Assembly: GCF_965641715.1 (NCBI RefSeq)
Contig: NZ_OZ282455.1
Reading direction: 5' to 3' (one strand)
Origin: Escherichia coli
GTDB lineage: Bacteria > Pseudomonadota > Gammaproteobacteria > Enterobacterales > Enterobacteriaceae
Length of the DNA stretch: 64,000 nucleotides
Positions within the stretch are counted from its first letter, which is position 1. Each line of letters opens with the position of its first letter. The notes under the pieces are model-generated. The model made no database searches and was not told the origin of the DNA. It was given only the letters and a program-made list of their open reading frames with translations. The position numbers were made by a program, and so were the translations under genes. Shown one piece after another: positions 4,271 to 27,494 of this stretch.

Positions 4271-4289
4271 AACAACGGAGGAAAACATC

Positions 4290-6125: not shown

Positions 6126-6140
6126 AGTCAGGAGGTTCTT

Positions 6141-6668: not shown

Positions 6669-6686
6669 CTGGCCTGACTGTGATAA

Positions 6687-6959
<273 letters not shown>

Positions 6960-7011
6960 GAGAGGTGCCGGACGCGCGAACGTCCGGCAGGACATAAGCA
7001 ATTATAAGGGG

Positions 7012-8976
7012 ATGATTATGCCTGTAACGAAGTGTGAACCAGAAACCACCCGCAAAGCAAGCCGTAAATCTGCAAAAACGCAGGAAACAGTCCTGTCTGC
7101 CCTGCTGGCGCAGACGGAGGAAGTGAGCGTGCCGCTGGCCTCACTGATTAAGTCACCGCTGAATGTGCGCACGGTGCCGTATTCTGCGGAGTCCGTCAGC
7201 GAACTGGCAGGGTCCATTCAGGGCGTCGGACTGCTGCAGAATCTGGTCGTGCATACCCTGCCTGGTGAGCGCTACGGTGTCGCCGCAGGTGGTCGCAGAC
7301 TGGCAGCACTCAATATGCTGGCTGAGCGTGGAATCATTCCGGCTGACTGGCCTGTCCGCGTGAAAATTATTCCGCAGGAACTGGCGACGGCTGCATCGAT
7401 GACCGAGAACGGTCATCGCCGGGATATGCACCCTGCCGAACAGATTGCCGGATTCCGCGCAATGGCGCAGGAAGGCAAAACAGCGGCACAAATCGGTGAT
7501 TTGCTGGGCTATTCACCCCGCCACGTTCAGCGAATGCTGAAACTGGCAGACCTTGCGCCTGTCATCCTTGATGCGCTGGCAGAAGACCGCATCACCACAG
7601 AGCACTGTCAGGCGCTGGCGCTGGAGAACGACACCGCGCGTCAGGTGCAGGTGTTTGAAGCTGCCTGTCAGTCGGGATGGGGCGGAAAACCGGAAGTACA
7701 GACCATTCGTCGTCTGGTGACCGAAAGTGAAGTGGCGGTGGCGGGGAACACTAAATTCCGCTTCGTGGGGGCTGATGCCTTCTCGCCAGATGAACTGCGC
7801 ACTGATTTGTTCAGCGACGATGAGGGTGGCTATGTGGACTGTGTTGCGCTCGATGCCGCCCTGCTGGAAAAACTCCAGGCTGTTGCAGAGTACCTTCGGG
7901 AAGCTGAGGGCTGGGGATGGTGTGCCGGACGCATGGAGGCCGTTGGTGAGTGCCGTGAAGATGCCCAGGCATACCGCAACCTGCCGCAGCCGGAAGCAGT
8001 GCTGACGGAGGCGGAAGAAGAACGCCTGAACGAACTGATGGCACGTTACGACGCACTGGAAAACCAGTGTGAGGAATCTGACCTGCTGGAAGCAGAAATG
8101 AAGCTGATGCGCTGCATGGCGAAGGTCAGAGCGTGGACGCCGGAGATGCGTGCCGGAAGCGGTGTGGTGGTGTCCTGGCGTTATGGCAACGTGTGTGTCC
8201 AGCGTGGTGTGCAGTTGCGCAGCGAGGATGACGTGGCTGACGACGCTGACCGCACGGAACAGATGCAGGAGAAAGCGTCAGTGGAGGAAATCAGTCTGCC
8301 ACTGCTGACGAAAATGTCTTCCGAACGCACGCTGGCAGTCCAGGCGGCACTCATGCAGCAACCGGACAAATCTCTGGCACTGCTGGCATGGACGCTCTGC
8401 CTGAATGTGTTTGGCAGCGGGGCGTACAGTAGTCCCGCCAGAATTTACCTGGAATGTGGGCATTACTCACTGACCAGCGCTGCGCCGTCAGGGAAGGAAG
8501 GTACCGCATTCATGGCGCTGATGGCAGAGCACTTTCGCCTTGCTGCCCTGCTGCCGGATGAATGGGAACGGGACATGACGACGTTCCTGTCACTCAGCCA
8601 GGAGGTGCTGTTATCCCTGCTCAGTTTCTGCACTGCATGCAGCATCCACGGCGTTCAGACCCGTGAGTGTGGTCACACGTCACGCAGTCCGCTGGACTCG
8701 CTGGAAACCGCCATCGGCTTTCACATGCGCGACTGGTGGCAGCCGACAAAAGCAAACTTCTTCGGACACCTGAAAAAGCCGCAGATTATCGCAGCCCTGA
8801 ATGAGGCAGGACTGTCCGGTGCCGCACGGGACGCGGAGAAGATGAAGAAAGGTGATGCGGCTGAACATGCAGAGCACCATATGAAAGACAACCGCTGGGT
8901 TCCAGGCTGGATGTGTGCACCACATCCACAGACAGATGCCACTGAACGCACCGATAACCTGGCTGATGCCGCCTGA
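7012..8976 (+). CDS. ParB-like nuclease-domain protein (large leading-region ParB/Srx homolog)
   Basis: Track ORF 6928..8976; ATG at 7012 after AAGGGG; N-terminal ParB box (VAAGGRRLAAL) followed by HTH-like segment. Confidence 0.8.
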   Translation: MIMPVTKCEPETTRKASRKSAKTQETVLSALLAQTEEVSVPLASLIKSPLNVRTVPYSAESVSELAGSIQGVGLLQNLVVHTLPGERYGVAAGGRRLAALNMLAERGIIPADWPVRVKIIPQELATAASMTENGHRRDMHPAEQIAGFRAMAQEGKTAAQIGDLLGYSPRHVQRMLKLADLAPVILDALAEDRITTEHCQALALENDTARQVQVFEAACQSGWGGKPEVQTIRRLVTESEVAVAGNTKFRFVGADAFSPDELRTDLFSDDEGGYVDCVALDAALLEKLQAVAEYLREAEGWGWCAGRMEAVGECREDAQAYRNLPQPEAVLTEAEEERLNELMARYDALENQCEESDLLEAEMKLMRCMAKVRAWTPEMRAGSGVVVSWRYGNVCVQRGVQLRSEDDVADDADRTEQMQEKASVEEISLPLLTKMSSERTLAVQAALMQQPDKSLALLAWTLCLNVFGSGAYSSPARIYLECGHYSLTSAAPSGKEGTAFMALMAEHFRLAALLPDEWERDMTTFLSLSQEVLLSLLSFCTACSIHGVQTRECGHTSRSPLDSLETAIGFHMRDWWQPTKANFFGHLKKPQIIAALNEAGLSGAARDAEKMKKGDAAEHAEHHMKDNRWVPGWMCAPHPQTDATERTDNLADAA

Positions 8977-9030
8977 TGAACAACCACACCGCCCCGCCGG
9001 AGACGGGGCGGCAGCAAGGGAGATACCGTG

Positions 9031-9465
9031 ATGAAAACTGAACTGACCCTGAATGCCCTGCAGTCCATGAACGCACAGGAATATGAAGATATCCGTGCTG
9101 CGGGAAGCGATATGCGCCGTAATCTCACTCACGAGGTGATGCGTGAAGTGGACGCACCGGCTAACTGGATGATGAATGGCGAGTATGGCAGTGAGTTCGG
9201 GGGCTTTTTCCCCGTCCAGGTTCGTTTCACGCCAGCCCACGAACGTTTCCACCTGGCATTATGTTCGCCGGGAGACGTCTCTCAGCTCTGGATGCTGGTT
9301 CTGGTGAATTGTGGTGGACAGCCTTTCGCCGTCGTTCAGGTGCAACATATCTTCACGCCTGTCGCTATCAGTCACACGCTGGCGCTTGCCGCGACACTTG
9401 ATGCGCAGGGGTACAGTGTTAACGACATCATCCATATCCTGATGGCAGAAGGAGGTCAGGCATGA
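9031..9465 (+). CDS. psiB: plasmid SOS inhibition protein PsiB
   Basis: About 144 aa; [27 protein letters not shown]... matches PsiB as I recall it. Confidence 0.95.
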
Positions 9466-10181
9466 GCGCACGTTCACGGGCACTGATCCCCCTCAGCGCA
9501 GAGCAACAGGCCGCCATGCAGGCTGTGGCTGTCACCGAACAACGTCGTCGTCAGGGACGCACACTTTCAGCATGGCCTTATGCCAGCGCTTTCTTTCGCT
9601 GCCTGAATGGCAGTCGCCGGATTTCGCTGACCGATCTCCGCTTTTTTGCTCCTGCGCTGACGAAGGAGGAATTTCATGGCAACCGTCTCCTGTGGCTGGC
9701 TGCCGTGGATAAACTGATTGAAAGTTTTGGTGAAGTCTGTGTTCTTCCCCTGCCATCCGATGCGGGGCATCGTCTGTTCCCGTCCGTTCCTTTTCGTGAA
9801 GGTGAGCGGCGTCGTCAGAAAACCACGCTGACAGAGCAGAAATACAGCCGCCAGCGGGAACGTGAGGCAGAACGACGGGAACTGGAATACCAGACATGTT
9901 TTGCTCAGGCGCAGATTGACCTTGCGTTTCATACTCCCGCCACGGTCGGAAGCTGGTTGTCCCGCTGGTCTGGTGTTGTTGAGGAGCATGATCTGGAAAC
10001 GATTTTCTGGGGGTGGTGCGGGCGTTTTCCATCACTGTCATCATTTGACCGGTTTTTCTGGCAGGAGGAACCACTCTGGCGGCTGATTTTTGAAGCCGGT
10101 GAGGCCGGTCGTGGTGCACCGGTACAGGTACGTGCACTTGAGCAGTGGATGATCCCGAACAAGCTGGAGAACGCAATATGA
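9462..10181 (+). CDS. psiA: plasmid SOS inhibition protein PsiA
   Basis: 239 aa, start overlaps psiB stop; matches PsiA as I recall it. Confidence 0.9.
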
Positions 10182-10774
10182 TGAAATCAGACGAACAATA
10201 TCACGTTCCCGTGTGGATGCGACCTCTGTTGCCGTTGCTCTGCAATACCGGTGGTAATGATCCGGAGGAACTGCTGAATGATACAGAAACCACCGCCAGT
10301 GCGAATATTGTCCGTTATGTACTGATAGTTGCAGTGCGGTCGCAGATTGATCTGCTGCAGCTACTGTACAGGAAAGGACTGTTGCGCACAGAGATACCAG
10401 GTGGCTTTTCACCGGAAGAAGCGCAGGAACTCCTGGATAATCTGGTGCGCAGCCATATCAGCAAGGCGCTGTCGGGTGAGCGAATGGCAGCCCGTGACAG
10501 AAATGCCGATCTGACCTGGATTCGCCAGCAACTGGTCGATGCCGCCTGGTTTGTCCGTGCCACACTGGAAGCGCATGGGATGGGCGTCGGAAATGAGAGT
10601 CCCTCTGCTCCGCCGGAGACAATGCCGGACATACAGACACGGGAACTGGTTATGTTGATCAAGCGACTGGCATCATCGCTGAAAGCGGTGAAACCCGACA
10701 GTAGCGTGGTGCGTGAAGCGCAGGACTGGCTGTGCGACAGAAAACTTGTGGATATCACAGATATTCTCCGGTGA
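10178..10774 (+). CDS. hypothetical protein (198 aa)
   Basis: Track ORF 10145..10774; ATG at 10178 overlaps psiA stop. Confidence 0.55.
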   Translation: MMKSDEQYHVPVWMRPLLPLLCNTGGNDPEELLNDTETTASANIVRYVLIVAVRSQIDLLQLLYRKGLLRTEIPGGFSPEEAQELLDNLVRSHISKALSGERMAARDRNADLTWIRQQLVDAAWFVRATLEAHGMGVGNESPSAPPETMPDIQTRELVMLIKRLASSLKAVKPDSSVVREAQDWLCDRKLVDITDILR

Positions 10775-10877
10775 ACCAGACATGTATATTTTACGCAGGG
10801 ACACGCCGATCATGATCGTTTCATATCAGGGGTGGTCTGGAGGTCATGCGGCGTGTCCTCTGCACTCGCCGGAATAA

Positions 10878-11218
10878 GGAAGTCGCCGGCGGCTCCGCTT
10901 TTACCCGGCCATGCGGGGCATGGCCTTGTGGGTTTTCAGCTCTGTGGCCTCAGCGTCGTGTGCGGGCTGTGCCGTGCCTCCATCTTAGCCGGGCTGGCAG
11001 GGATGCAAGGGTACGCTTCGCCGCTGCGGTCACCCGGTCCCTCCTTCCCGTCTGCCGTGATTTTCCGGTCGTTCACCCGCTCAGATTTCGCGGTCTCACC
11101 CTCCAACTCCCGCCAGCCGTGTGCGTCAGGCTGCGGCTTCCCTTGCGCCCTGTGCATCCCCGCCTTATCGCCCGGCTTTTATGGAGGCACGGCACCGCCC
11201 GGTGCCGCAGAACATGTG
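10878..11218. repeat. dispersed leading-region repeat, family A copy 2 (candidate ssDNA promoter / ssi element)
   Basis: Near-identical to 3933..4270; ends about 18 nt before ardA start. Confidence 0.7.
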
Positions 11219-11236
11219 ACTATGGAGGATTCGGGA

Positions 11237-11737
11237 ATGTCTGTTGTTGCACCTGCTGTATACGTTGGAACCTGGCACAAATACAACTGTGGAAGTATCG
11301 CCGGACGCTGGTTTGACCTGACCACGTTTGATGATGAGCGCGACTTTTTCGCCGCCTGCCGTGCTCTTCACCAGGATGAAGCCGATCCTGAACTGATGTT
11401 TCAGGATTATGAGGGATTCCCGGGGAATATGGCCTCTGAATGCCATATCAACTGGGCCTGGGTTGAAGGCTTCCGCCGGGCACGGGATGAAGGCTGCGAA
11501 GAGGCTTATCGTCTCTGGGTGGATGATACCGGTGAGACGGATTTTGACACCTTCCGCGATGCCTGGTGGGGCGAGGCTGACAGTGAGTAGGCTTTTGCGG
11601 TTGAGTTCGTCAGTGATACCGGCCTGCTGGCTGACGTGCCGGAGACGGTGGCGCTCTATTTTGACTATGAGGCGTATGCGCGGGATTTATTCCTGGACTC
11701 CTTCACCTTTATTGACGGTCATGTGTTCCGTCGGTGA
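11237..11737 (+). pseudogene. ardA: ArdA antirestriction gene interrupted by in-frame TAG at codon 118
   Basis: [20 protein letters not shown]... matches ArdA; reading frame stops at TAG 11588..11590 (…GEADSE*) and resumes in frame with the ArdA C-terminus (AFAVEFVSDTGLLADVPETVALYFDYEAYARD…RR*) to TGA 11735..11737. Confidence 0.85.
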
Positions 11738-11781
11738 TTTACTCCCCCGCTCCGGCGGGGGTATGGCCTGCCAGGCCGCCG

Positions 11782-12445
11782 GAAAACCCTGGCAGGCTTA
11801 CGCCTGCCTGAAATGCAGGAGGGCCGCGCCTGCGGCGCTGCCCTTCCTGCCCGTCATGGTGTGAGGCATTTTTCTGTTATGTCGTTTCTGTTGTTCTGAT
11901 TTCCGGAGGCGGGGACACCTTCGGCTCCCGGCTGCCTGGCGGCATCCGGTCGTCAGGCCCGACTCCGACAGGCAGCTGCTGGCGCACCCGCCAGTCTCCG
12001 CCGAACCCGCTGGCGCGGTTTCGGGCTGCCGCTACGGTCCGATGTCTGAAAAACCAGGCTTGCAGCGACCGTTCCGGTCGCGCCGCCCCTGTCGCGCCGG
12101 AAACGGCGCTCCCTGCACACCTGACGGTGTGTAAGGCCACTGCGCCTGATGGCGCAGTCAACCCTTCCGCCGCCACCCCTGCGGCCTGTTTCCCGCTGTG
12201 GACTTTCCGGGGGCTGGAGTAACCACATCCCGTTTCAGCAGTCTAGGGGAAGATATACCGTCCACAAAATTTTTAGCCATAAACCCGGCAAAAAATTTTG
12301 CGTCCGCCCCCGGACAGCTGCCCCGTGACGTGGTGACGGACGCCCCATCGGAAAGGTCCACTGCGGGGAGAAACCCCGAAGAAGTGGACGGCAGAAGGGG
12401 CTTTCGCCCCTCCGGGGAGCAACCGGTCGGCCCGGCGACCTGATT
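11782..12445. repeat. dispersed leading-region repeat, family B copy 2
   Basis: Similar to 5412..6125 over about 660 nt; ends at SD of ORF 12466. Confidence 0.7.
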
Positions 12446-12465
12446 CAGCAGAAGGAGACGTTTTC

Positions 12466-12900
12466 ATGACAGTCAGCAGCACGATTTCCGTTTTTTGCCG
12501 CGACGGGGTGTTCCGTACCGTTTACTGCCACCTGCACGGGGAGCCGACCTGGAACGGTCGCATCCTGCATACCCACTATGCCACCGGTCAGCAGGCCGAA
12601 GCCCTGGTTGAACACGGTGATATCCGTTGCCTCGGTCCCCGTTGCGACAAACCCGCCGGGCATACGCTTCAGAACCCGGTGGACGGTGTGACGGCTTATT
12701 ACGGACGTGACAGTGGTTTCCGGATGGACAGTGAGGCGCGTGAGTACCGTTCTTTCAGGGAGGCTATTGCCACTGAAAGCACTGAAGAGGTGCGCTTCCA
12801 TTATGTGTTCATCGACGGCTACTGGAAGGTGATGTACCGCACGCCGGAAGGCTGGAAGATGAAAGCGCTCGCGCTGGCACTGCGTCGCTGTCCGAAATGA
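12466..12900 (+). CDS. hypothetical protein (144 aa)
   Basis: Track ORF with GAAGGAGA SD; immediately downstream of family B repeat; hairpin after stop. Confidence 0.6.
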   Translation: MTVSSTISVFCRDGVFRTVYCHLHGEPTWNGRILHTHYATGQQAEALVEHGDIRCLGPRCDKPAGHTLQNPVDGVTAYYGRDSGFRMDSEAREYRSFREAIATESTEEVRFHYVFIDGYWKVMYRTPEGWKMKALALALRRCPK

Positions 12901-12993
12901 AAAAAAGGCAGGGCGATAAACCCTGCCTCTCTCCGCCGGCGCTTCCCCGCCAGGAAGTCCGGCATCTCAATCACTATCTATGGAGATTATGCC

Positions 12994-13260
12994 ATGAGAC
13001 CATCAATTATCTTCGCAACCGCCGAGTATGTAAAGCGTCTGCGTGAAGAGTGCCTGCGGGAGAATAAACCCCTGCACCGCCATACCCGCTTCAGACGTCA
13101 GGAGCTGGCACAGGATGAGATTAACCCGGACGTCCTGGCGATGAGCGGCCATATCGCCAGACGCTGCAGTGAGCAGAAGCGGGTGCGTATCCCCGCTATG
13201 AAAGTCAGCGAATGGGGCCACCTGCTCCGCGCGCTTGAAATTGAGCGGGTCTGCCACTGA
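12994..13260 (+). CDS. hypothetical protein (88 aa)
   Basis: Track ORF with GGAG SD. Confidence 0.5.
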   Translation: MRPSIIFATAEYVKRLREECLRENKPLHRHTRFRRQELAQDEINPDVLAMSGHIARRCSEQKRVRIPAMKVSEWGHLLRALEIERVCH

Positions 13261-13324
13261 TTAACCCTTGCCGTCTGCCTGTGCAGGCGGCAGGATACGT
13301 TCAGACATCTCACCAGGAGGAACC

Positions 13325-14251
13325 GTGAGTAAGAAGAAAACCACCACGACGCCCACGCCGCATGATGCCGCGTTCCGGTCGTTCCTGGCGAATCCCGACG
13401 TCGCCAGAGATTTTCTGGAACTGCATCTTCCGGCGGAGTACCGGCAGTTGTGCGACCTGTCCACGCTGAAGCTGGAACCCGCCACCTTTGTTGAGCCGGA
13501 CCTGCATCAGTACGCCAGCGATATCCTCTGGAGTGTGAAAACCACCGGGGGTGAAGATGGCTATGTTTATACGCTCATCGAGCACCAGAGCACCGAAAAT
13601 CTGTACATGCCTTTCCGCATGTTACGTTACAGTGTGGCGGCGATGCAGAGACATCTGGAGCAGCACAAAACGTTGCCACTGGTCATTCCGGTGCTGTTCT
13701 ATCACGGTGAGCGCAGCCCGTACCCGTACAGCATGAACTGGCTGGACTGTTTTGAGAATCCGGCGCTTGCGGCTAAAATATACACAAAGCCGTTTCCGCT
13801 GGTTGATATCACTGTCGTTGATGACAATGAAATCATGAACCATCGCCGGATGGCCGCACTGACGCTGCTGATGAAGCATATCCGCCATCGTGACATGATG
13901 GAGCTGCTGGACAAACTCCCGCAGGTCATGGTGGAAATTTCAGACGAGCAGGTGCGTGTTCTGATTCATTACATCGTTAACGCAGGGGACTCTGTATCAC
14001 CGGAATTTATGCGGGCGCTGGCTGAGCGTCTGCCGCAGCATGAGGATAAACTGATGACTATCGCAGAACGTCTTGAGCAAAAAGGTCGCCAGGAAGGCAG
14101 GATGGAAGGACGCATGGAAGGACGCATGGAAGGAGCGCTTGAAAAAGCCCTGGCTATTGCGTGCCAGCTTCAGAAAATGGGGATGACGCCGGAGCAGATT
14201 AAGCAGGCTACCGGACTTTCCGATGACGAACTGAAGAAAATCACTCACTGA
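13325..14251 (+). CDS. Rpn-family recombination-promoting nuclease (YhgA-like, PD-(D/E)xK)
   Basis: Track ORF 13268..14251; GTG at 13325 after CAGGAGG; YhgA-like N-terminal region; C-terminal tandem GRMEGRMEGRMEG repeat (about 14096..14134). Confidence 0.75.
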   Translation: MSKKKTTTTPTPHDAAFRSFLANPDVARDFLELHLPAEYRQLCDLSTLKLEPATFVEPDLHQYASDILWSVKTTGGEDGYVYTLIEHQSTENLYMPFRMLRYSVAAMQRHLEQHKTLPLVIPVLFYHGERSPYPYSMNWLDCFENPALAAKIYTKPFPLVDITVVDDNEIMNHRRMAALTLLMKHIRHRDMMELLDKLPQVMVEISDEQVRVLIHYIVNAGDSVSPEFMRALAERLPQHEDKLMTIAERLEQKGRQEGRMEGRMEGRMEGALEKALAIACQLQKMGMTPEQIKQATGLSDDELKKITH

Positions 14252-14262
14252 GTAAACATCAC

Positions 14263-14288
14263 AGCCCGGCAAAATGCCGGGCTTTTTT
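14263..14288 (+). terminator. Rho-independent terminator
   Basis: AGCCCGGC-aaaat-GCCGGGC followed by TTTTTT after Rpn stop. Confidence 0.6.
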
Positions 14289-14312
14289 GTCAGCAGGAGC
14301 AGAGCAAACAGC

Positions 14313-14471
14313 ATGACGATTGCAGAACGTCTTATTCAAAAAGGCGCACTTGAAGTGGCGCGGGAAATAGCCTGCCGGCTGCGGGATATGGGCTGGACGC
14401 CGGAACGGATTCAGGAGGCAACCGGACTTTCCGGTGAAGAACTGAAAAAGCTGTTTCCTGATGAGCAGTAG
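14313..14471 (+). CDS. small protein homologous to the Rpn C-terminal tail (RpnS/YpaA-like)
   Basis: 52 aa (MTIAERLIQKGALEVAREIACRL…) aligns with the last about 60 aa of the upstream Rpn protein but lacks the GRMEG repeats. Confidence 0.5.
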   Translation: MTIAERLIQKGALEVAREIACRLRDMGWTPERIQEATGLSGEELKKLFPDEQ

Positions 14472-14501
14472 CCTGGCATTCAGCCAGGCTGTGAATCACG
14501 C

Positions 14502-14753
14502 TCACACATCCTCTGCCGTTTCCCCCAGTTCATTTTCCAGTCGCCTGATGATATCTGCCTTACGCATCCCCTGCATGTGAGGCAGCAGGTCACGGACTGA
14601 AAGTGCCTGGGTGGTCCTCCAGACGGTGACGTCCACCTGTTCCGCATTTTCCCAGGCGTGCCATGTTCTCTGCGTCACGCCAAATTCTCTGGCCGCTTTT
14701 TCGCGTGACCAGAGCATGCTTTTTCGCCAGATTCGCAGTTCCCAGCCGGTCAT
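14502..14753 (-). CDS. small HTH DNA-binding protein (XRE/Cro-like candidate regulator)
   Basis: 83 aa; HTH-like segment SREKAAREFGVTQRTWHAWEN; AAGGTG SD; divergent from leading genes. Confidence 0.6.
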   Translation of the reverse strand: MTGWELRIWRKSMLWSREKAAREFGVTQRTWHAWENAEQVDVTVWRTTQALSVRDLLPHMQGMRKADIIRRLENELGETAEDV

Positions 14754-14767
14754 AAAACACCTTTAAA

Positions 14768-14788
14768 AAAGTGAAAAAACTTCACTTT
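14768..14788. promoter_or_regulatory. operator-like palindrome AAAGTGAA-N5-TTCACTTT (site 1)
   Basis: Perfect 8-bp inverted repeat about 15 nt upstream of the HTH gene start. Confidence 0.5.
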
Positions 14789-14834
14789 ATTTTATCATCA
14801 TAATCACCAAATTAACGCGATAAATAAGTGTGAA

Positions 14835-14855
14835 AAAGTGAAGAAATTTCACTTT
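14835..14855. promoter_or_regulatory. operator-like palindrome AAAGTGAA-N5-TTCACTTT (site 2)
   Basis: Second identical palindrome 67 bp from site 1 in an AT-rich divergent promoter region. Confidence 0.5.
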
Positions 14856-14960
14856 TTTTGCTTGTAAATGTCGTGCGGTTTTCTCTGTTTTCACCTGTGC
14901 GGGAGTGGTGTGCCAGTGACCACCACATGCCATTGTTGTGCCGTCGTTTTTCTTCAGTCG

Positions 14961-15315
14961 CGCCGTATGCGGCGCTCCCTGCACACCTTACGGTGTGTAA
15001 GGCCACTGCGCCTGATGGCGCAGCTGTCTCTGCCTGTCTGCCGCCGCACTGCGGCCTGTTCTCCGCAGACGGACTTTCCGGGGGTACATACATGACCACA
15101 TCCCGTTTCAGTCGTCCAGGGGAGAGATGTACCAGCCACAAAACTTTTTGCCGCAGGCGTCAAAAACTTTTGCGTCTGCCCCCGGACAACTGCCCCGTGA
15201 CGTGGTGAGCGTCCCCCGTCGGAAAGGTCCACTGCGGGGAAATCCCCGAAGACCCGGACGGCAGAAGGAGCTTCGCTCCTCCGGGAAATGACCTGGCTGA
15301 CCCGGCAGTCGTGAC
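14961..15315. repeat. dispersed leading-region repeat, family B copy 3 (3' unit only)
   Basis: Matches only the 3' about 355 nt of copies 1 and 2; ends at SD of ORF 15330. Confidence 0.65.
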
Positions 15316-15329
15316 GATGAGGAGACAAT

Positions 15330-16181
15330 GTGATGAATCAGACTTTACCCACTGCTGACCTGAATACTGCCGGCACGACAGATGTTATTCCGTCTGTGGC
15401 TATCGACCGCATCATCGCGCAGCGTAACGAAGGTATTGCACTGTTCATGCAGGCGATGGAATGCCTGGCGACAGCGCGCAAGATTCTGCTCGATGCGTCA
15501 GGTGATATTTTTCTTTACGGGTTTGAAGACTGCGTGACTGATTCCGTTCGTCGCATAGATAAACCGGAAGAAGCGAAAAGGAATATCACCCGTCTTGCCG
15601 ACCGGAAAATCTGGGATCGCCTGATGACAGATACGGGCATGTACACCTTCATGAGTTCATGCCAGCGTGATGAGTGGAACAGCCAGCTGATGAGCGACAC
15701 CTGTCCTGAAATCACCCTGGACAATGTACTGGCAACATTCCGCCATCTGAATGCCTGCAAGATGCAGACATTTGAACAGGGACTGATTGATGTCTACCGG
15801 AAATTGTCATGGGATTACAGAACCAATAATCCCTGCCGTCTGGGTAAGAAAATCATTATTGAAAACCTGCTGTACCGCTGGAGTAACGGGCGTGTGACGC
15901 TGGACTGCAGCGGACGGGAGGCACTGGATGACCTGGTACGTCCGTTTTATCTGCTGGAGGGGCGCAACGTTCCTGACTTCAGGAACAGTATCGGGGCGCA
16001 GTATGGTGAATTTCTCGGGAACGGCGACAATGTCGGTAAGCTGTTAGAAGGGGAATATTTTACGGTGCGTGGCTACCAGAAAGGGACCGTACACATTGTC
16101 TTTAAGCGTTCTGACCTTGTTGAAAAACTGAATGATATTATTGCACGGCATTATCCAGGTGCATTGCCGCCACGAGTCTGA
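15330..16181 (+). CDS. hypothetical protein (283 aa), oriT-proximal leading gene
   Basis: Track ORF with GAGGAGA SD; hairpin plus T-run after stop. Confidence 0.6.
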   Translation: MMNQTLPTADLNTAGTTDVIPSVAIDRIIAQRNEGIALFMQAMECLATARKILLDASGDIFLYGFEDCVTDSVRRIDKPEEAKRNITRLADRKIWDRLMTDTGMYTFMSSCQRDEWNSQLMSDTCPEITLDNVLATFRHLNACKMQTFEQGLIDVYRKLSWDYRTNNPCRLGKKIIIENLLYRWSNGRVTLDCSGREALDDLVRPFYLLEGRNVPDFRNSIGAQYGEFLGNGDNVGKLLEGEYFTVRGYQKGTVHIVFKRSDLVEKLNDIIARHYPGALPPRV

Positions 16182-16266
16182 TTAAACAGAAAAGCCCTGG
16201 TATTTATGCCGGGGCTTTTTTTTCTGTAATCATCATAATCTCAGAACACGATGTGACATTGTCACA

Positions 16267-16602
16267 TCAATTGTTGTTCATATCGATGCCATCTTTCCTG
16301 CCTGAATCTGTCTTTTTAGGTGCTGTTTTAGAGGAAGAACGGCGGGATGGTTTTTTCGATTCTGCTTCCCGAATAATGTCACGAAGTGCCTTCTCTCCTA
16401 CTTCATACCCTGCATTTTTGAGCGTGTCACGAACATCTGCCAGTGTATAACCCTTTGTCCTTACCAGGACAATAATGTCATCACGAATGGCATCAAGAAA
16501 ATCACGCAATGTTTTCCGTTGAGCGGTGAGATCTGGCAATTCCGATAAAGCAGCTTTTGCCAGCTGGATGTCATCATCTGAGTAAAATTTTTTAGAAGCC
16601 AT
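16267..16602 (-). CDS. hypothetical small protein with basic C-terminal tail (111 aa)
   Basis: Track ORF 16267..16608 (GTG); ATG at 16602 with GGAGAG SD; tail SKKPSRRSSSKTAPKKTDSGRKDG suggests nucleic-acid binding. Confidence 0.5.
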   Translation of the reverse strand: MASKKFYSDDDIQLAKAALSELPDLTAQRKTLRDFLDAIRDDIIVLVRTKGYTLADVRDTLKNAGYEVGEKALRDIIREAESKKPSRRSSSKTAPKKTDSGRKDGIDMNNN

Positions 16603-16660
16603 TGGCACTTTCTCTCCGTTTCATGTTGAAGTCTGATTTTATCATCAAAAACTGACTCCT

Positions 16661-16791
16661 GGCAGGGCTGCGCCCTGCCTCTGCCGTCTGCATAAGACTA
16701 TGATGCACAAAAATAACAGGCTATAATGGCCTGAAAAACGGGACAGGATGTGCAATTGTAATACCGTCACACGCGACGCTATTACAATTGC
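16661..16791 (-). other. oriT: oriT (origin of transfer) with predicted nic site on the - strand
   Basis: 12-bp inverted repeat GCAATTGTAATA / TATTACAATTGC (16752..16763, 16780..16791); on the - strand the repeat is followed by ACATCCTG then TCCC, matching the IncP-type nick consensus ATCCTG|Y, which places the nick between + coordinates 16744/16743, 8 nt from the repeat; second palindrome GGCAGGGCTGCGCCCTGCC at 16661..16679; directly upstream of nikA. Confidence 0.7.
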
Positions 16792-16835
16792 CATCTGGTC
16801 AGGGCTTCGCCCCGACACCCCGTAAGGAGCCTGAA

Positions 16836-17168
16836 GTGAGTGATAGTGCGGTAAGAAAGAAAAGTGAGGTACGGCAAAAGACAGTTGTCAGGACACTCAG
16901 ATTCTCTCCTGTTGAGGATGAAACCATCAGGAAAAAAGCTGAAGATTCCGGACTTACTGTATCTGCTTACATCCGAAATGCAGCACTGAATAAGCGAATT
17001 AACTCCCGTACAGATGATGCTTTTCTGAAGGAGTTAATGAGACTGGGAAGGATGCAGAAGCATCTGTTTGTTCAGGGAAAAAGAACCGGTGACAAGGAAT
17101 ACGCAGAAGTGCTTGTTGCCATAACCGAACTTACAAATACATTGCGTAAACAGTTAATGGAAGGTTGA
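16836..17168 (+). CDS. nikA: relaxosome accessory protein NikA
   Basis: Track ORF 16788..17168; GTG at 16836 after AAGGAG gives 110 aa; adjacent to oriT and nikB. Confidence 0.85.
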   Translation: MSDSAVRKKSEVRQKTVVRTLRFSPVEDETIRKKAEDSGLTVSAYIRNAALNKRINSRTDDAFLKELMRLGRMQKHLFVQGKRTGDKEYAEVLVAITELTNTLRKQLMEG

Positions 17169-17178
17169 GGATTCTCCG

Positions 17179-19878
17179 GTGAATGCAGTCATTCCAAAAA
17201 AGAGAAGGGACGGCAAGTCTTCGTTCGAAGACCTGGTATCCTACGTCTCTGTCCGGGATGACATGACCGATGAGGAACTGGATTTATCTTCTTCTTCGCA
17301 GGCTGAACAACCGCACCGAAGCCGTTTCAGTCGCCTTGTTGATTATGCGACACGTCTTCGAAATGAGTCATTCGTGGCGCTGGTTGATGTCATGAAGGAC
17401 GGCTGCGAATGGGTCAACTTTTATGGTGTCACCTGCTTTCATAACTGTACTTCTCTTGAAACTGCCGCTGCAGATATGGAGTACATTGCCCGGCAGGCAC
17501 ACTATGCAAAAGATGACACTGATCCTGTTTTTCACTACATTCTTTCCTGGCAGTCACATGAAAGCCCGCGTCCGGAACAGATTTATGACAGTGTACGTCA
17601 TACGCTGAAATCACTCGGCCTTGCCGACCATCAGTATGTCTCTGCCGTGCATACTGATACAGATAATCTGCACGTCCATGTGGCTGTTAACCGGGTACAC
17701 CCTGAAACGGGTTATCTGAACCGGTTATCCTGGAGTCAGGAAAAACTCAGTCGTGCCTGCCGTGAGCTTGAACTGAAGCATGGTTTTGCTCCGGATAACG
17801 GTTGCTGGGTCCATGCACCGGGAAATCGTATCGTTCGCAAAACCGCCGTTGAACGTGATCGCCAGAACGCGTGGACACGCGGGAAAAAACAAACTTTTCG
17901 CGAGTATGTCGCGCAGACAGCGGTCGCTGGTTTACGCAGTGAACCTGTAAATGACTGGTTATCCCTGCATCGTCGTCTTGCGGAAGATGGTCTGTACCTG
18001 TCTCAGATGGACGGAAAATTTCTGGTGATGGATGGCTGGGATCGCAACAGGGAAGGTGTACAGCTTGACTCGTTTGGTCCCTCCTGGTGTGCAGAAAAAC
18101 TCATGAAAAAAATGGGTGACTACACGCCAGTACCAAAAGACATTTTCAGCCAGGTGGAAGCACCAGGACGCTATAATCCGCACTTCATTGCCGCTGATGT
18201 TCGCCCGGAAAAAATCGCTGAAACAGAAAGTCTGCAGCAGTATGCCTGTCGTCATCTTGGAGAACGTCTGCCGGAAATGGCACGGGAAGGACGGCTGGAA
18301 AACTGCCAAGCTATTCACCGCACACTGGCTGAAGCGGGATTATGGATGCGTGTTCAGCATGGTCACCTGGTTATCTGTGACGGTTATGATCATAACCAGA
18401 CTCCCGTTCGTGCTGACAGCGTATGGTCGCTGCTGACGCTCGACAATGTGAATCAACTCGATGGTGGCTGGCAGCCTGTACCAACAGATATTTTCCGCCA
18501 GGTTACGCCAACAGAACGCTTCCGTGGTCGTCGTATGGAGAGCTGTCCTGCGACCGATAAAGAATGGCACCGTATGCGTACAGGCACGGGGCCGCAGGGG
18601 GCTATCAAACGCGAACTGTTTTCTGACAAAGAAAGTCTGTGGGGATACAGCATCAGCCATTGTAGCCCTCAGATTGAAGAAATGATCACACAGGGTGAGT
18701 TTACCTGGCAGCGTTGTCATGAGCTGTTTGCACAACAGGGACTGATGCTACAGAAACAACATCACGGGCTTGTTGTCGTTGATGCCTTTAATCATGAGCA
18801 AACGCCGGTGAAGGCCAGCAGCATTCATCCTGATCTGACACTGGGGCGTGCAGAGCCACAGGCCGGACCTTTTGTGAGTGCCCCAGCAGATTTGTTTGAC
18901 AGGGTGCAACCTGAAAGTCGCTATAACCCGGAGCTGGCTGTCAGTGACAGGTACGGGGTCAGCAGTAAACGTGACCCAATGCTGCGCCGGCAGCGACGTA
19001 AAGCCAGAGCTGAGGCCCGTGCTGACCTGCGTGCCCGCTATCTGGCATGGCGTGAACAATGGCGTAAACCAGATCTGCGTTATGGGGAACGTTGTCGGGA
19101 AATTCATCAGGCATGCCGTCTGCGGAAGTCACACATTCGTGCGCAGTACGATGATCCGGCATTACGTAAGCTGCATTATCACATTGCAGAAGTTCAGCGA
19201 ATGCAGGCATTGATCAGGCTGAAAGAAGACATCAGGGATGAGCGACAGAAACTTATTGCTGACGGGAAGTGGTATCCACCCTCTTACCGTCAGTGGGTCG
19301 AAACTCAGGCTGCTCAGGGAGACAGGGCTGCTGTATCGCAGCTGAGAGGCTGGGATTATCGCGATCGCCGTAAAGACAGGTCACGCACAACGACGACAGA
19401 CCGCTGTGTCGTGCTTTGTGAACCGGGCGGAACGCCGGTATACGGTAATACCGGTGATCTCGAGGCCCGTCTGCAGAAGAACGGGAGTGTTCGTTTCCGT
19501 GACCGTCGGACGGGAGAGTTTGTCTGTACGGATTATGGTGACAGGGTTGTTTTCCGTAATCACCATGACCGCAATGCGCTGGCAGATAAACTGGATTTGA
19601 TTGCACCGGTATTATTCGGGCGTGATCCTCGCATGGGTTTTGAACCAGAAGGAAACGACAAACAATTTAACCAGGTCTTTGCTGAAATGGTTGCCTGGCA
19701 TAATGTGACAGGCCGTACCGGTCACGAAGACTACAGGATTACGCGACCGGACGTGGATCATCACCGTGAAGGAAGTGAACGCTACTACCGCGATTATATC
19801 GCGGCGAACAGCAACGATGACGCATCACTGCCTCCGCCGGAGCAGGATAAACGCTGGGAACCGCCTTCTCCAGGTTAA
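17179..19878 (+). CDS. nikB: relaxase NikB (MOBP family)
   Basis: 899 aa; histidine triad HTDTDNLHVHVAVN typical of relaxases. Confidence 0.95.
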   Translation: MNAVIPKKRRDGKSSFEDLVSYVSVRDDMTDEELDLSSSSQAEQPHRSRFSRLVDYATRLRNESFVALVDVMKDGCEWVNFYGVTCFHNCTSLETAAADMEYIARQAHYAKDDTDPVFHYILSWQSHESPRPEQIYDSVRHTLKSLGLADHQYVSAVHTDTDNLHVHVAVNRVHPETGYLNRLSWSQEKLSRACRELELKHGFAPDNGCWVHAPGNRIVRKTAVERDRQNAWTRGKKQTFREYVAQTAVAGLRSEPVNDWLSLHRRLAEDGLYLSQMDGKFLVMDGWDRNREGVQLDSFGPSWCAEKLMKKMGDYTPVPKDIFSQVEAPGRYNPHFIAADVRPEKIAETESLQQYACRHLGERLPEMAREGRLENCQAIHRTLAEAGLWMRVQHGHLVICDGYDHNQTPVRADSVWSLLTLDNVNQLDGGWQPVPTDIFRQVTPTERFRGRRMESCPATDKEWHRMRTGTGPQGAIKRELFSDKESLWGYSISHCSPQIEEMITQGEFTWQRCHELFAQQGLMLQKQHHGLVVVDAFNHEQTPVKASSIHPDLTLGRAEPQAGPFVSAPADLFDRVQPESRYNPELAVSDRYGVSSKRDPMLRRQRRKARAEARADLRARYLAWREQWRKPDLRYGERCREIHQACRLRKSHIRAQYDDPALRKLHYHIAEVQRMQALIRLKEDIRDERQKLIADGKWYPPSYRQWVETQAAQGDRAAVSQLRGWDYRDRRKDRSRTTTTDRCVVLCEPGGTPVYGNTGDLEARLQKNGSVRFRDRRTGEFVCTDYGDRVVFRNHHDRNALADKLDLIAPVLFGRDPRMGFEPEGNDKQFNQVFAEMVAWHNVTGRTGHEDYRITRPDVDHHREGSERYYRDYIAANSNDDASLPPPEQDKRWEPPSPG

Positions 19879-19884
19879 AAAAAA

Positions 19885-19909
19885 GGCCGCGCCAGAATCC
19901 GGCGCGGCC
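19885..19909 (-). terminator. Rho-independent terminator (for trbC; sits between convergent nikB and trbC)
   Basis: GGCCGCGCC-agaatcc-GGCGCGGCC hairpin with A-run on + strand (U-run on - strand). Confidence 0.5.
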
Positions 19910-19914
19910 ACTGT

Positions 19915-22206
19915 TCAGTACATTCCGTCCCAGTCCGGACGGTTGGTTTTTTTATGATGAAACCCGTTTACAGGACGCCCTGTCGGGTGGTTATTGTCCT
20001 GTGGAAGCGTTAACAGGTTTATACCTGCTCTTTCTGCTCTCACTGATATCTGATTTTCCTCTTTTGTTTCAGGTAGTTCTGGTCTGTTCAGCGTGATATA
20101 GCGAATTCGTCGCTCTTCCCGTGTGGTCGTTTTAAGCGTATTCACCGCTGTTTCCCACAAGGCACTTTCACGTGCGTTGATATCTGTGTCGTACTCTTCC
20201 AGCATTGCCATAGCCGCCTGACGTCCTGCAATGCGTTGCTGGAATGTATCCACGATCGTGTGCGGCTCTGTGCGAATTTTTCGTCTTTTTCTGGAGGGTT
20301 TTGCAGTCAGGACGCCAATGATGGCACTGACATTTTCCGGTGACGGTATTCGACGTTGAGTAGTACGGGGAACAAGACGGCGGAGACGGTCCAGGCGTGG
20401 CGCATCCACGCTGATATACCTGTTTATAACAACGGGATCGCTGCTGCAGCTTTTCTCATCGTCAGGGATGAAGAATGATGCTGATGGTACGGTTTCTCCC
20501 CGGAAAATAGAAAAGAACTCGCCAGGATGAAGTTCAATCAACTCCTGAACATTTATCTTGCTTTCCATCAGGATGCTGATTTGTGGGCTGTCAATCCATG
20601 ATTCACCAAATATGCCGTCCTGACGCTGCAGGTTGTTCATTCTCGCCCTGGCTTCTTCACCGGCGGCGCTTTTCAGCGTTCTGGCCGTACTACCCTCGCT
20701 GACAATCCTGCCGGCAAATTTTGTCCCCGTGTTCTGCATCAGTGTTGCAGTATTCGTGGCTGTTGTCTGTCCTTCTATACGTTCCTGGTCCTGTGCCATC
20801 AAAATCAGAGCAAAATCCAGTGAACGCACCTGAGTGGCTTCCACAGCAATACGGTCCGTATAGTATGCCCCCACTTCATCAAGGAAACACAGATAAGGGA
20901 AACGCCCCTTATATTTTTTGACTTCCAGTGCATCGGAATCAGTTCCTTCGAGGCGGTAGCCCAAATCACGGGCGAGAATCATACTTTTCTGGGTGATAAA
21001 CATTCGTCCAAGAGCAGACGTTGTATGCGCTGATGTATCCAGAGCGGGGATCATTACCATCAGAATCCTGTCGCTGTGAATGCTGTCACGGATATCGATA
21101 TCACCGGAATCTTCAGCAAAAATATCCCCGAATGCTTCCGTGAATGTGCTGAAAGTTTCAGAAAACTGCCCGGAGAGATAAGCATGTTGTTTTCTGGGTT
21201 CTTCCGTCCAGGCTGATGGTGTCCTGACCAGCGACAGGTCGAAACCGGGAACGTCCTGAAGGTAGTTACGTAACGGTGCGATAGCTTCTTCCGGCCACTG
21301 ATCATCGAGGCCACGACAGTAAAGTTTGGCCATCCCTTCGAGAGTCATATGTTCACGGAGCATCTGCAGCGACATTGTTTTGCCTTCGCGCACACACCAG
21401 AATTTAGTACCAAATACCAGTGCCTTATTCATGGCAATGGCCCGGGACTGCCACTCGCCCCCCTGGACGTTCTGGGGCAGCATTGACTGCATTGTCTCCG
21501 CTGTGAATGCCTCAGTGCTGTAACAGAAGGGATTCCAGGTATTTGACTGAGGACGCGTTTTTTCACCACTCAGAATGATTTCACTGCGGGATTTTCCTCC
21601 GTTCATGAAGTTAATGACTTCCACATCGTCTTCACGTCCAAAGCGTCTGGCCAGATACCAGATCGTTCTTGCCGTATCATTCTGTGCCTTGCCATCGACA
21701 AGGGTGAATCCTCTTGCCCAGCAAAGTGGGTTAATCGCCCAGGCAAAGATGGTTTCCGTTTTACCGCCACCGGTGGTGGCGAAAAACATTATATGGCGGG
21801 TCAGATCGTCCATACTCAGCCATAACTCCCTGCCAATATCCCTGACGCGTTGATAACCAACATAGAATATGCCGCTGGCCGGTGATTCCAGAATGACCTC
21901 ATACTGGAACAGGGTTGGCCAGAAGCTGAAAAGACTTCTTTTAATCATTCTGTCCTGTGACGGGTCAGCACATTCCAGCGTCATGGGCATACGAAGAGGG
22001 CAGCGCCATCGCTGCAGACTAAATACCAGCATTGTTATCAGTGTGAACAACAGACATGCCGGTAATGCAAGTGGCCAGATAAAACTGGCCACAAGACTTG
22101 CCACCAGGCAAAAGCCATAGATATTGAGACTCTGGAGTGCATTCCAGACAGGATTTCCCCAGGCTGTACGGTGTAAAAGCTCGGGGTTAACGCGATGTTC
22201 ACTCAT
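19915..22206 (-). CDS. trbC: conjugal transfer protein TrbC (NTP-binding)
   Basis: 763 aa; Walker A-like ATTGGGKTE; N-terminal TM segments; position matches R64 trbC. Confidence 0.8.
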   Translation of the reverse strand: MSEHRVNPELLHRTAWGNPVWNALQSLNIYGFCLVASLVASFIWPLALPACLLFTLITMLVFSLQRWRCPLRMPMTLECADPSQDRMIKRSLFSFWPTLFQYEVILESPASGIFYVGYQRVRDIGRELWLSMDDLTRHIMFFATTGGGKTETIFAWAINPLCWARGFTLVDGKAQNDTARTIWYLARRFGREDDVEVINFMNGGKSRSEIILSGEKTRPQSNTWNPFCYSTEAFTAETMQSMLPQNVQGGEWQSRAIAMNKALVFGTKFWCVREGKTMSLQMLREHMTLEGMAKLYCRGLDDQWPEEAIAPLRNYLQDVPGFDLSLVRTPSAWTEEPRKQHAYLSGQFSETFSTFTEAFGDIFAEDSGDIDIRDSIHSDRILMVMIPALDTSAHTTSALGRMFITQKSMILARDLGYRLEGTDSDALEVKKYKGRFPYLCFLDEVGAYYTDRIAVEATQVRSLDFALILMAQDQERIEGQTTATNTATLMQNTGTKFAGRIVSEGSTARTLKSAAGEEARARMNNLQRQDGIFGESWIDSPQISILMESKINVQELIELHPGEFFSIFRGETVPSASFFIPDDEKSCSSDPVVINRYISVDAPRLDRLRRLVPRTTQRRIPSPENVSAIIGVLTAKPSRKRRKIRTEPHTIVDTFQQRIAGRQAAMAMLEEYDTDINARESALWETAVNTLKTTTREERRIRYITLNRPELPETKEENQISVRAERAGINLLTLPQDNNHPTGRPVNGFHHKKTNRPDWDGMY

Positions 22207-24496: not shown

Positions 24497-24648
24497 GACA
24501 AAGTCTCCATTTCTGGAATTTAAATCAAACGGAAAGGTTAAAAATTTATTTGCAGGCGATAAGAGCTAACCAGAGGAATTAGCCGTGCGATAAAAGGATT
24601 GTTGCAGATACGAAAGTCGTTAGAATAGCTGCGGGCGCTTGAGGCTGT

Positions 24649-24933
24649 ATGCCGAAAGCGTTTTGTGGACGGTATACAGCAGAAAGCCCCTGGAGATTTT
24701 TTTATCAATCAACCAAGGGCTCTACTGTAATGCCTAGACAACATTATAGTAGCCCGATAACCGCCGTAAGGCAATGGAGGGGCTATGATGCCACAGCGAA
24801 CGTTTTTAATGATGTTAATCGTCATCTGTGTGACGATTCTGTGTTTTGTCTGGATGGTGAGGGATTCGCTTTGCGTACTCCGGCTCCAGCAGGGAAACAC
24901 AGTGCTTGTGGCAACGTTAGCCTACGAAGTTAA
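24649..24933 (+). CDS. pndC: PndC-like (Mok-equivalent) overlapping reading frame
   Basis: Track ORF overlapping pndA in another frame, as in hok/mok loci; true start probably internal. Confidence 0.4.
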   Translation: MPKAFCGRYTAESPWRFFYQSTKGSTVMPRQHYSSPITAVRQWRGYDATANVFNDVNRHLCDDSVFCLDGEGFALRTPAPAGKHSACGNVSLRS

Positions 24934-24940
24934 ACGTTAA
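24788..24940 (+). CDS. pndA: PndA, Hok/Gef-family type I toxin
   Basis: 50-aa ORF found by hand (MPQRTFLMMLIVICVTILCFVWMVRDSLCVLRLQQGNTVLVATLAYEVKR); Hok-family hallmarks SLC…G…LAYE; GGAGGGG SD. Confidence 0.8.
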   Translation: MPQRTFLMMLIVICVTILCFVWMVRDSLCVLRLQQGNTVLVATLAYEVKR

Positions 24941-25011
24941 CGGGCAACACGGCGGCAGGTTTTCTGCCGCCGCTTTGTTGCGAAGGCTGACCTCATTGCG
25001 CCCTTTCTTCT

Positions 25012-25263
25012 TCAATGAAGCGTATCCGGTATTGTTTCATTTCCCCTGAAGCCGATTAGCTCCAGCCGAATGCCTTTGCCATCGGGGGCCACGTTCTGCA
25101 TTTCGCAGATACCACGTCGGGTCATGAGTGTGAAGGCTGTCATTGCCAGCATGGCTAACGCGTTTTCCTCGCTTCCGCTGCGTTTCTCGAGAGCATCGGC
25201 AATTTCTTCTATGCTCCCCACCTGAAAGCAAGAGTCGAATTCTTTACTCCACTTTTCTGACAT
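25012..25263 (-). CDS. hypothetical protein (83 aa)
   Basis: Track ORF; ATG with GAGAG SD. Confidence 0.45.
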   Translation of the reverse strand: MSEKWSKEFDSCFQVGSIEEIADALEKRSGSEENALAMLAMTAFTLMTRRGICEMQNVAPDGKGIRLELIGFRGNETIPDTLH

Positions 25264-25416
25264 CGGATTTTCTCTCTGTATTTATGGGTAGTTATCGAAC
25301 TGAATGTGCCAGTTTTTTCAGGAGACGGCAAAGTTGAGATGATTGGTTCTGATTCAGAGCATGAGTTTCCTCGGTGTGACGGGCATGTCGGGCGGATTTT
25401 GAGAAACAACAGATGT

Positions 25417-25503
25417 AAAAAAACCGACTGGTGAGGTCGGTTTTTTTACTGTTCCGTTACAGAGTGGGTGGCCCTGACCGGAGGAAATCTCTTTTCAACT
25501 AAC
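25417..25503 (-). ncRNA. candidate trans-acting antitoxin sRNA (about 87 nt)
   Basis: - strand promoter TTGCTA-17 nt-TATTAT (about 25510..25540); 5' 24 nt complementary to 25667..25690; terminator A7-CCGAC-loop-GTCGG-T7 at 25417..25447. Confidence 0.45.
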
Positions 25504-25761
25504 GTTCTTATAATAGCGAGCTGTTCATTTGATAGCAACCATCCTTATAATCCGCAGGTTAGCTCTGTCTGGCGACACTTCTGCCGTGATATCCATCGGG
25601 ACTATGGATGCAAGATTTTAAGTCCTGGCTGAACAAACAGGTGGTGCTGTGTTCAGTGCTCTGGCAGGAGGAAGTCTCTTTTCAACTAACACTGAAAGTG
25701 CCGTTGTGACAGGCAATGTAAGAGTAAGCAACGGTGATTTCCTCCAGTGATGGAGAAGCGG

Positions 25762-25857
25762 ATGATTAATCTGTTAATCATCGTTCTCAGGGCAGTAGTT
25801 GCCGTTGCAAACGCGCTGATTGCTGTTCTGGAACTGATCCGGGAACTTGTCGACTGA
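25762..25857 (+). CDS. candidate type I toxin, 31-aa hydrophobic peptide
   Basis: ORF found by hand: MINLLIIVLRAVVAVANALIAVLELIRELVD; GGAG 8 nt upstream; long 5' UTR holding the sRNA target site; hairpin after stop. Confidence 0.45.
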   Translation: MINLLIIVLRAVVAVANALIAVLELIRELVD

Positions 25858-25921
25858 TAAGCCTGGAAACGTAACTAAGGGCAGGGAGTTACCGCTTCCT
25901 GCCCTTTAACAAAAAGAGATC

Positions 25922-26098
25922 TCACGTTAAAAATTTGTACCCTTCTTTAACTTCCAGTGCCTGCTCCTTTGACTCAAACATCAGTCTTGTTTTCCCGGGA
26001 ACACCCCATGAAATGTATTCAACATCTATCCACCATTTTCCATATTCTTCATATGGCCCGGATATTACTTTTTTGACAAAGGCGTCTACCAGATTCAT
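25922..26098 (-). CDS. hypothetical small protein (58 aa)
   Basis: Inside track ORF 25922..26206; ATG at 26098 follows AAGGAAAA; AT-rich context. Confidence 0.35.
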   Translation of the reverse strand: MNLVDAFVKKVISGPYEEYGKWWIDVEYISWGVPGKTRLMFESKEQALEVKEGYKFLT

Positions 26099-26483
26099 TA
26101 TTTTTTCCTTTTTGTGTTGAAAATAATTAATGCCAGAGCACAGCGAAAATAATGAATGCGCTGGCTGTGATAATTGCGATTTTCTCCCATATGATATTTT
26201 TCTCATGGGGGATTCTACGGAGATTATTTCTTCGCATTGAGATACCGGTATTCATGTTTTATCTTGGACTTTTGTTTTGTTGTCTGTCTGGCAGGCTGTT
26301 CTGCGCCCGTTTGTGACAAGGTTAGCTTATGGGGTTAAATGGTCACGGACATCATGCGGACGGTTCCCTGTCACATGCCATCTGGTTTTTTCATTCAAAT
26401 TGAGAGATATTGCTAAGTTGAGTCGCTTGCGATAGTGGACTCCTGTTTGTAAGTGAGTGCCATTGTTTATTTCATGAAGAGGA

Positions 26484-26699: not shown

Positions 26700-26770
26700 C
26701 GGCATAAGTTATCTGTTGTAATGAACAAAAGCCGGCTCATTTGAACCGGCTGTTATGGAGGGAGCTTATC

Positions 26771-27445: not shown

Positions 27446-27494
27446 CGATATTTTAATGCGATTGAGTGTTTATGGCAAGGTTGTTTTATTAAAA

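Follow-up and report, generated by a model that had tools for sequence, protein, structure and literature searches.

The interval 16739-16822 of the analysed DNA, a stretch of 64,000 nucleotides from Escherichia coli (contig NZ_OZ282455.1, hereafter the window), is, judged from its sequence, almost certainly the oriT of a conjugative plasmid of the IncI1 type (I-complex, MOBP12), identical to the oriT of R64 and ColIb-P9. It is a canonical IncI1 oriT, already known. The original prediction of an oriT at 16661-16791 is right but ordinary. All sequence-level features of an R64-type oriT were found, namely the nick region, the 17-bp repeat, the 8-bp repeat, nikA-nikB and the leading region. The elements of the module and the two genes beside it are as follows; a slash marks the cut bond.

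16739-16822, minus strand: conserved oriT module, transferred strand CGGGGTGTCGGGGCGAAGCCCTGACCAGATGGCAATTGTAATAGCGTCGCGTGTGACGGTATTACAATTGCACATCCTG/TCCCG, 100% identical to R64 and ColIb-P9
16743-16744, minus strand: nic, the phosphodiester bond between G16744 and T16743, with T16743 as the future relaxase-linked 5' end; position of the curated published nic sites
16740-16751, minus strand: nick region ACATCCTG/TCCC, which fits the MOBP consensus YATCCTG/Y
16752-16768: nick-proximal arm of the 17-nt repeat, GACGGTATTACAATTGC on the minus strand
16775-16791: distal arm of the 17-nt repeat, GCAATTGTAATAGCGTC on the minus strand
16798-16816: 8-bp inverted repeat GTCGGGGC-gaa-GCCCTGAC, beside nikA, between the 17-nt repeat and this gene
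16836-17168, plus strand: nikA, ribbon-helix-helix relaxosome accessory protein, GTG start
17179-19878, plus strand: nikB, MOBP relaxase

Structure and conservation of the oriT module

On the minus strand, positions 16763 to 16740 read TATTACAATTGC-ACATCCTG-TCCC (24-mer TATTACAATTGCACATCCTGTCCC, a single occurrence in the window), so that 16744 is G and 16743 is T. The minus strand also carries the 12-nt complement GCAATTGTAATA, at 16791 to 16780. The 12-bp arm described originally is thus real and perfect, and a repeat finder identified it as the perfect portion of a 17-nt inverted repeat, the arms of which (16752-16768 and 16775-16791) are 94% complementary with one mismatch and are separated by a 6-nt spacer. 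The gap between the proximal arm and the putative nick is exactly 8 nt. Folded as single-stranded DNA, the minus strand of the module forms two hairpins (-28.8 kcal/mol, z = -8.3). A search of Rfam gave no match at or near oriT. [quoted passage not shown]

Concerning the identity of the site, window positions 16600-16900 recur with 100% identity in over 1000 plasmid records, among them ColIb-P9 (NC_002122.1); these records are typed MOBP / MPF_I and come chiefly from Escherichia and Salmonella. Direct alignment over 16600-16860 revealed no difference from ColIb-P9 in the 261 nt compared and two differences from R64 (NC_005014.1), both on the leading side of the nick and outside the core. At position 16732 the minus strand has G in R64 and A in the window, and within the palindrome at 16661-16679 R64 has a 1-base gap. 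The stretch that begins with the nikA start and takes in both inverted repeats and the nick region is the same in R64 and ColIb-P9 without exception, and their functional module does not differ from that of the window. The likeness to these two plasmids comprises both inverted repeats, the 8-nt spacing from arm to nick, the site upstream of nikA, NikA itself and the leading region. The closest whole-region match is pRKI3099a (NZ_MN124285.1), typed IncI-gamma/K1 by MOB-suite, with which positions 1-20000 are collinear with 23 mismatches in 20 kb; the gene annotation of these 20 kb was carried over from it one to one.

The genes nikA and nikB lie directly downstream of the module and are transcribed away from oriT. 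NikA has the same sequence as its R64 and ColIb-P9 counterparts (100% identity) and matches the Pfam NikA-like family (79.4 bits) as well as the N-terminal domain structure PDB 2BA3 (E = 6.7e-26). NikB differs from its R64 counterpart in 4 of 899 residues (99.6% identical) and from that of ColIb-P9 in 7; it matches the Pfam Relaxase family with 108 bits and the NCBIfam TraI/MobA(P) relaxase model (TraI_MobP_relax) with 416 bits at a cutoff of 250. Position 22 of NikB is a tyrosine, which presumably takes the place of the catalytic Tyr22 of RP4 TraI.

A search for distant relatives retrieved the sequence from 3815 plasmid records, many of them only 1.4-4.3 kb in size and keeping just about window 16822-16735. 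Similarity starts at GGGTGTCGGGG, stops a few bases past ATCCTGTCCCG and decays outside. For delimitation, the window and R64 were aligned with 14 diverse relatives (n = 16), including IncK2/Z, IncI-gamma and pESI-like plasmids, an Enterobacter plasmid, an IncF plasmid and small Col-type plasmids from Escherichia, Salmonella, Klebsiella, Enterobacter and Serratia. The anchors GGGTGTCGGG and ATCCTG plus 5 nt are present in 16/16 and enclose a block of 79-82 nt, equivalent to window 16820-16739. Within CACATCCTGnCC, which starts with the final C of the proximal arm, 11 of the 12 positions are invariant; directly 3' of the nick, 15/16 sequences have T and pESI has C. Hardly any variation is seen in the 8-bp repeat block (16798-16816), and the distance of 8 nt from proximal arm to nick is fixed in all 16. 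The 17-nt arms vary between lineages yet remain complementary. For the outer 8 pairs of the arms, pairing over 13 distinct sequences reaches 98%, compared with 33-43% in slid controls; compensatory double changes occur in five of these eight pairs, and the observed covariation score was reached in 0/500 shuffles. Conservation in small oriT-only plasmids does not extend to the approximately 78 nt at 16661-16738, on the leading side. As to the interval 16661-16791 proposed originally, it holds the nick region and both 17-nt arms, and is offset. It omits the 8-bp repeat and adds the unconserved 78 nt, so that it does not describe the functional unit, which should be given as about 16739-16822.

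Could the 17-nt repeat primarily be an operator or attenuator of nikAB that lies next to the nick only incidentally? The module abuts the nikA ribosome-binding site AAGGAG at 16824-16829. A sigma-70 scan found no promoter-like site on the plus strand upstream of nikA; this strand carries a perfect TATAAT at 16722-16727 with no recognisable -35. By its sequence, this hexamer is the only candidate -10 element for nikAB, and a transcript starting from it would read through the nick and the repeats. Ribbon-helix-helix accessory proteins elsewhere are autoregulatory, e.g. MobC of RA3 (PMC4175270), and covariation of the palindrome is also expected of an operator that binds a dimer. However, the distance of exactly 8 nt between repeat and nick is also maintained in small plasmids that have neither nikA nor nikB, which makes sense only as a cis-acting transfer function. 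Moreover, R64 NikA binds just one arm of the repeat, according to the title of the paper describing it. We take 'repeat A' of R64 to be the nick-proximal arm, equivalent to 16752-16768. The 'nick region and repeat A' are the core required for transfer of R64 (PMC4743918). We therefore regard a primary operator function as very unlikely and the repeat as part of oriT, although the one role does not preclude the other. A terminator-like hairpin, CAGGCCATTATAGCCTG followed by a T-run, is located on the minus strand at 16717-16733, 10 nt past the nick, and its complement includes the plus strand TATAAT.

Nick position and transfer polarity

The minus strand positions 16750-16743 read CATCCTG/T, with the inverted repeat 5' of this sequence, in agreement with the MOBP nick consensus. 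The IncP/MOBP-type ATCCTG/Y was seen upstream of nikA, with its cut 8 nt past the repeat arm, as had been predicted. This heptamer is common: ATCCTGY occurs 33 times on both strands of the window, where 15.6 copies are expected from base composition. The heptamer alone is therefore uninformative, and it is the combination of features that is non-random. Among the 33 sites, only the copy at 16744 on the minus strand has a long inverted repeat (17 nt, one mismatch) that stops 8 nt short of the cut; at the next best site the arm measures 11 nt and the loop 14 nt.

The exact bond was taken from a curated table of nic sites (PMC5789077, Supplementary Tables S1/S2) and from secondary citations, and the nicked strand was assigned from the MOBP family rule and from leading-region biology. 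Table S1 lists experimentally determined nic sites in the format N5/N5 with nic in the middle (PMC5789077). For R64 (NC_005014, MOBP12) it gives CGGGA/CAGGA, citing Furuya et al. 1991 (PMC5789077 Table S1). The other strand of this site is TCCTG/TCCCG and matches window 16739-16748. In the R64 stretch compared, the 10-mer is unique (66951-66960), and the nick at its middle lies between bases 66955 and 66956 of the record. For ColIb-P9 the nic is listed at position 39635 of NC_002122 (PMC5789077 Table S2); by coordinate conversion, the G of ATCCTG/T is record base 39636 and the T is record base 39635. Both published nics thus convert exactly to G16744/T16743 of the window, and the predicted nick between 16744 and 16743 on the minus strand, within a core identical to that of both plasmids, coincides to the base with the mapped R64 nick region. 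In the MOBP family, whose consensus (C/T)ATCCTG/(C/T) cites the R64 mapping paper among its sources, the strand bearing ATCCTG is cut and the relaxase is attached to the 5' end (PMC3772185). The relaxase-bound 5' end is the leading end that enters the recipient (PMC8125031, PMC7440800), and relaxase genes are typically the last to enter (PMC11541004).

Read 5' to 3', the minus strand runs toward lower coordinates, so that T16743 would lead and the 1-16.6 kb side would enter first. This side carries the following features.

415-16602: leading region, predicted to enter the recipient first, in the order 16602 to 415
11237-11737: ardA, leading region
9031-10181: psiB/psiA, leading region
7018-8976: ParB-like gene, leading region
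6141-6668: ssb, leading region
4290-4715: klcA-like antirestriction gene, leading region
1701-2384: DNA methylase, leading region

Transcription from incoming single-stranded DNA requires the transferred strand as template, and leading genes are therefore expected on the plus strand, transcribed toward oriT. Twenty of the 23 annotated coding sequences in 415-16602 are on this strand (11.6 kb) and three are on the minus strand (14502-14753, 14787-14984 and 16267-16602; 0.8 kb). The earlier statement that all leading genes share one orientation consequently applies to 20/23; one of the exceptions, 16267-16602, would be the first gene to reach the recipient. Single-stranded DNA promoters of IncI1 plasmids switch on ssb, psiB, ardA and the methylase gene within 15 min (PMC12672017). 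Two families of long repeats in the window match promoters of this kind that have been described in IncI1 plasmids as class 2 and class 1 (Frpo/ssi) (PMC12672017): one is present upstream of the klcA-like gene and ardA (3984-4271 and 10931-11219), the other upstream of the ssb operon and the operons of the genes at 12466 and 15333 (5575-6071, 11919-12412 and about 14916-15217). In a homology-free comparison of the two DNA strands, the minus strand of these five promoter-like elements folds better than the plus strand by 10.0-21.6 kcal/mol, and that of the oriT module by 6.5 kcal/mol; for 40 control segments the difference was +1.0 +/- 5.5, the lowest value being -8.4. Such a bias is expected if the minus strand functions as single-stranded DNA. 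Published polarity, leading gene content and minus strand folding agree, and transfer toward lower coordinates with the 1-16 kb region first, as proposed originally, is supported.

Taken together, it is extremely improbable that the match to ATCCTG/T is coincidental and that the true nick lies elsewhere or on the plus strand. Abundant as the heptamer is, the site is identical to that of R64 and ColIb-P9, the curated positions match, and the nick region is invariant over 16 relatives while the flanks diverge. A nick on the plus strand would put nikB and trb first, against the early expression of ardA, psiB and ssb in IncI1 plasmids (PMC12672017), and would be contrary to the folding bias of the minus strand. 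There is likewise next to no chance that the site is an inactive relic from which the plasmid no longer transfers: the core is 100% identical to the functional oriT of R64 and ColIb-P9, nikA and nikB are intact, the oriT sequence occurs once in the window, and pRKI3099a, where aligned with the window, carries the trb, tra and pil set in its own annotation.

A second palindrome copy and other features of the window

An exact second copy of the GC-rich palindrome in the 8-bp repeat is found across the nick, on its leading side, GGGCGCAGCCCTG at 16663-16675 corresponding to GGGCGAAGCCCTG at 16800-16812, both on the minus strand. Matches to the palindrome with at most one mismatch number 3 in the window where 0.23 are expected, a count reached in 0/100 shuffles. 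The second copy (16661-16679) is kept in large I-complex plasmids and absent from small oriT-only plasmids. It overlaps the -35 element of a promoter-like site on the minus strand (16665 to 16636) that precedes the divergent open reading frame (ORF) 16267-16602.

This ORF has no match in Pfam or NCBIfam, and its database names are 'molybdopterin-guanine dinucleotide biosynthesis protein MobC', 'Mobilization protein MobC' and 'wHTH protein', the first of which we take to be a propagated misnomer. Judging by position only, we infer that it corresponds to YggA of R64. Orf35 of pCTX-M3 is 32% identical to R64 YggA and represses nikAB and tra (PMC6112013). By this analogy the ORF may have a regulatory link to nikAB and tra. 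The incoming strand is the sense strand of 16267-16602, and the ORF could therefore be transcribed only once the DNA is double-stranded. That the two palindromes might be shared operators of a YggA-type repressor, which would shut down the relaxosome genes after establishment, is a speculative and rather unlikely idea.

Further along the window, two Rfam matches scored above the gathering score. A sok antitoxin RNA at 24633-24790 on the plus strand (134 bits) is consistent with a Hok/Gef (pnd-like) locus adjoining trbA, and an AgrB antisense RNA is found at 25415-25502 on the minus strand (55 bits). Compared with pRKI3099a, the finQ and IS66 region of that plasmid is missing from the window (24760-28441), and about 25480-28440 is unmatched there. 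The shufflon segments 53467-54039 and 54021-54595 are inverted relative to pRKI3099a, as expected of Rci-mediated shufflon rearrangement, and from 54576 to 59779 identity falls to 92.7%.

Proposed transfer mechanism and related oriT systems

The following steps are drawn from knowledge of R64 and RP4 and transferred to the window by identity. NikA would bind the nick-proximal arm (16752-16768) and position or recruit the NikB relaxase. NikB would then cleave the minus strand at G16744/T16743 in ACATCCTG/TCCC by transesterification and stay covalently linked to the 5' end at T16743. The cut strand would be unwound 5' to 3' toward lower coordinates and exported via the IncI1 Tra/Trb type IVB secretion system. 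Hereby the yggA-like gene, ardA, psiAB, ssb and the other leading genes would be the first to arrive, and nikAB, trb and tra the last. With 20 of the 23 leading genes on the plus strand, the incoming minus strand would be their template, and they could be transcribed from hairpin-forming single-stranded DNA promoters ahead of complementary-strand synthesis. At termination, the transferred 3' end would present the 8-bp and 17-nt hairpins followed by the regenerated nick region, where NikB would rejoin the strand; the title of Furuya & Komano 2000 assigns the R64 oriT repeats a role in termination.

The system shares several features with RP4/RK2 (IncP, MOBP11, TraI/TraJ): an ATCCTG core cut after G with an inverted repeat just 5' of it, a relaxase on the 5' end, and a relaxase operon whose transcription leads away from oriT and which is the last to enter (PMC3772185, PMC5789077). 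In contrast, the base after the nick is C in RP4 and T in the window, the repeat sequence differs, the accessory proteins are TraJ/TraK/TraH in RP4 and NikA here, and secretion is of type IVA in RP4 whereas it is of the I-type (IVB) for the window plasmid. A further relative is the IncM plasmid pCTX-M3. R64 served as the model for its nick region ACATCTTG/T, and self-transfer is lost when this region is mutated (PMC7440800, PMC8125031). Low-level cross-mobilisation occurs between pCTX-M3 and ColIb-P9 (PMC8125031, PMC7440800, PMC6112013). The nick core of pCTX-M3 differs in one base (CTTG versus CCTG here), its NikA and NikB are only about 30% identical, and its nikAB is fused to the tra operon.

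Small plasmids with an R64-like oriT module are already known from pEC156 and the NTP16/pCERC7 family. A 93-bp R64-like oriT makes the small plasmid pEC156 mobilisable by R64drd11 (PMC4743918). Plasmid pEC156 and the NTP16/pCERC7/pU302S family share with the window the 79-82-nt module, the invariant nick region, the 8-bp repeat and the 8-nt spacing, but their 17-nt arms have diverged with compensatory changes. These small plasmids lack a relaxase gene and sometimes nikA, which would make them dependent on a helper. Among the 3815 records that match the oriT module, 1728 are typed 'mobilizable'. Col-type plasmids of 1.4-4.3 kb carry the R64-like module of about 80 nt with or without a nikA/mobA-like gene and have no relaxase gene; very small examples are NZ_LR890342.1 (1433 bp) and NZ_CP082072.1 (1467 bp). 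In the Salmonella plasmid pN17S1441 (CP082628.1, 42934-43961), a 127-bp piece of the oriT region, which extends from the 5' end of nikA across the 8-bp repeat into the beginning of the distal arm, is present twice in tandem, so that there are two copies of the 8-bp repeat and only one nick region. The duplication could be a real oriT rearrangement or an assembly artefact.

The value of the present assignment is one of annotation: it fixes the nick and the order of gene entry for this plasmid and adds nothing to what has been known of R64 and ColIb-P9 since 1991. The nick position and entry order help to interpret the anti-defence genes of the leading region and to predict which small plasmids would be mobilised by this backbone.
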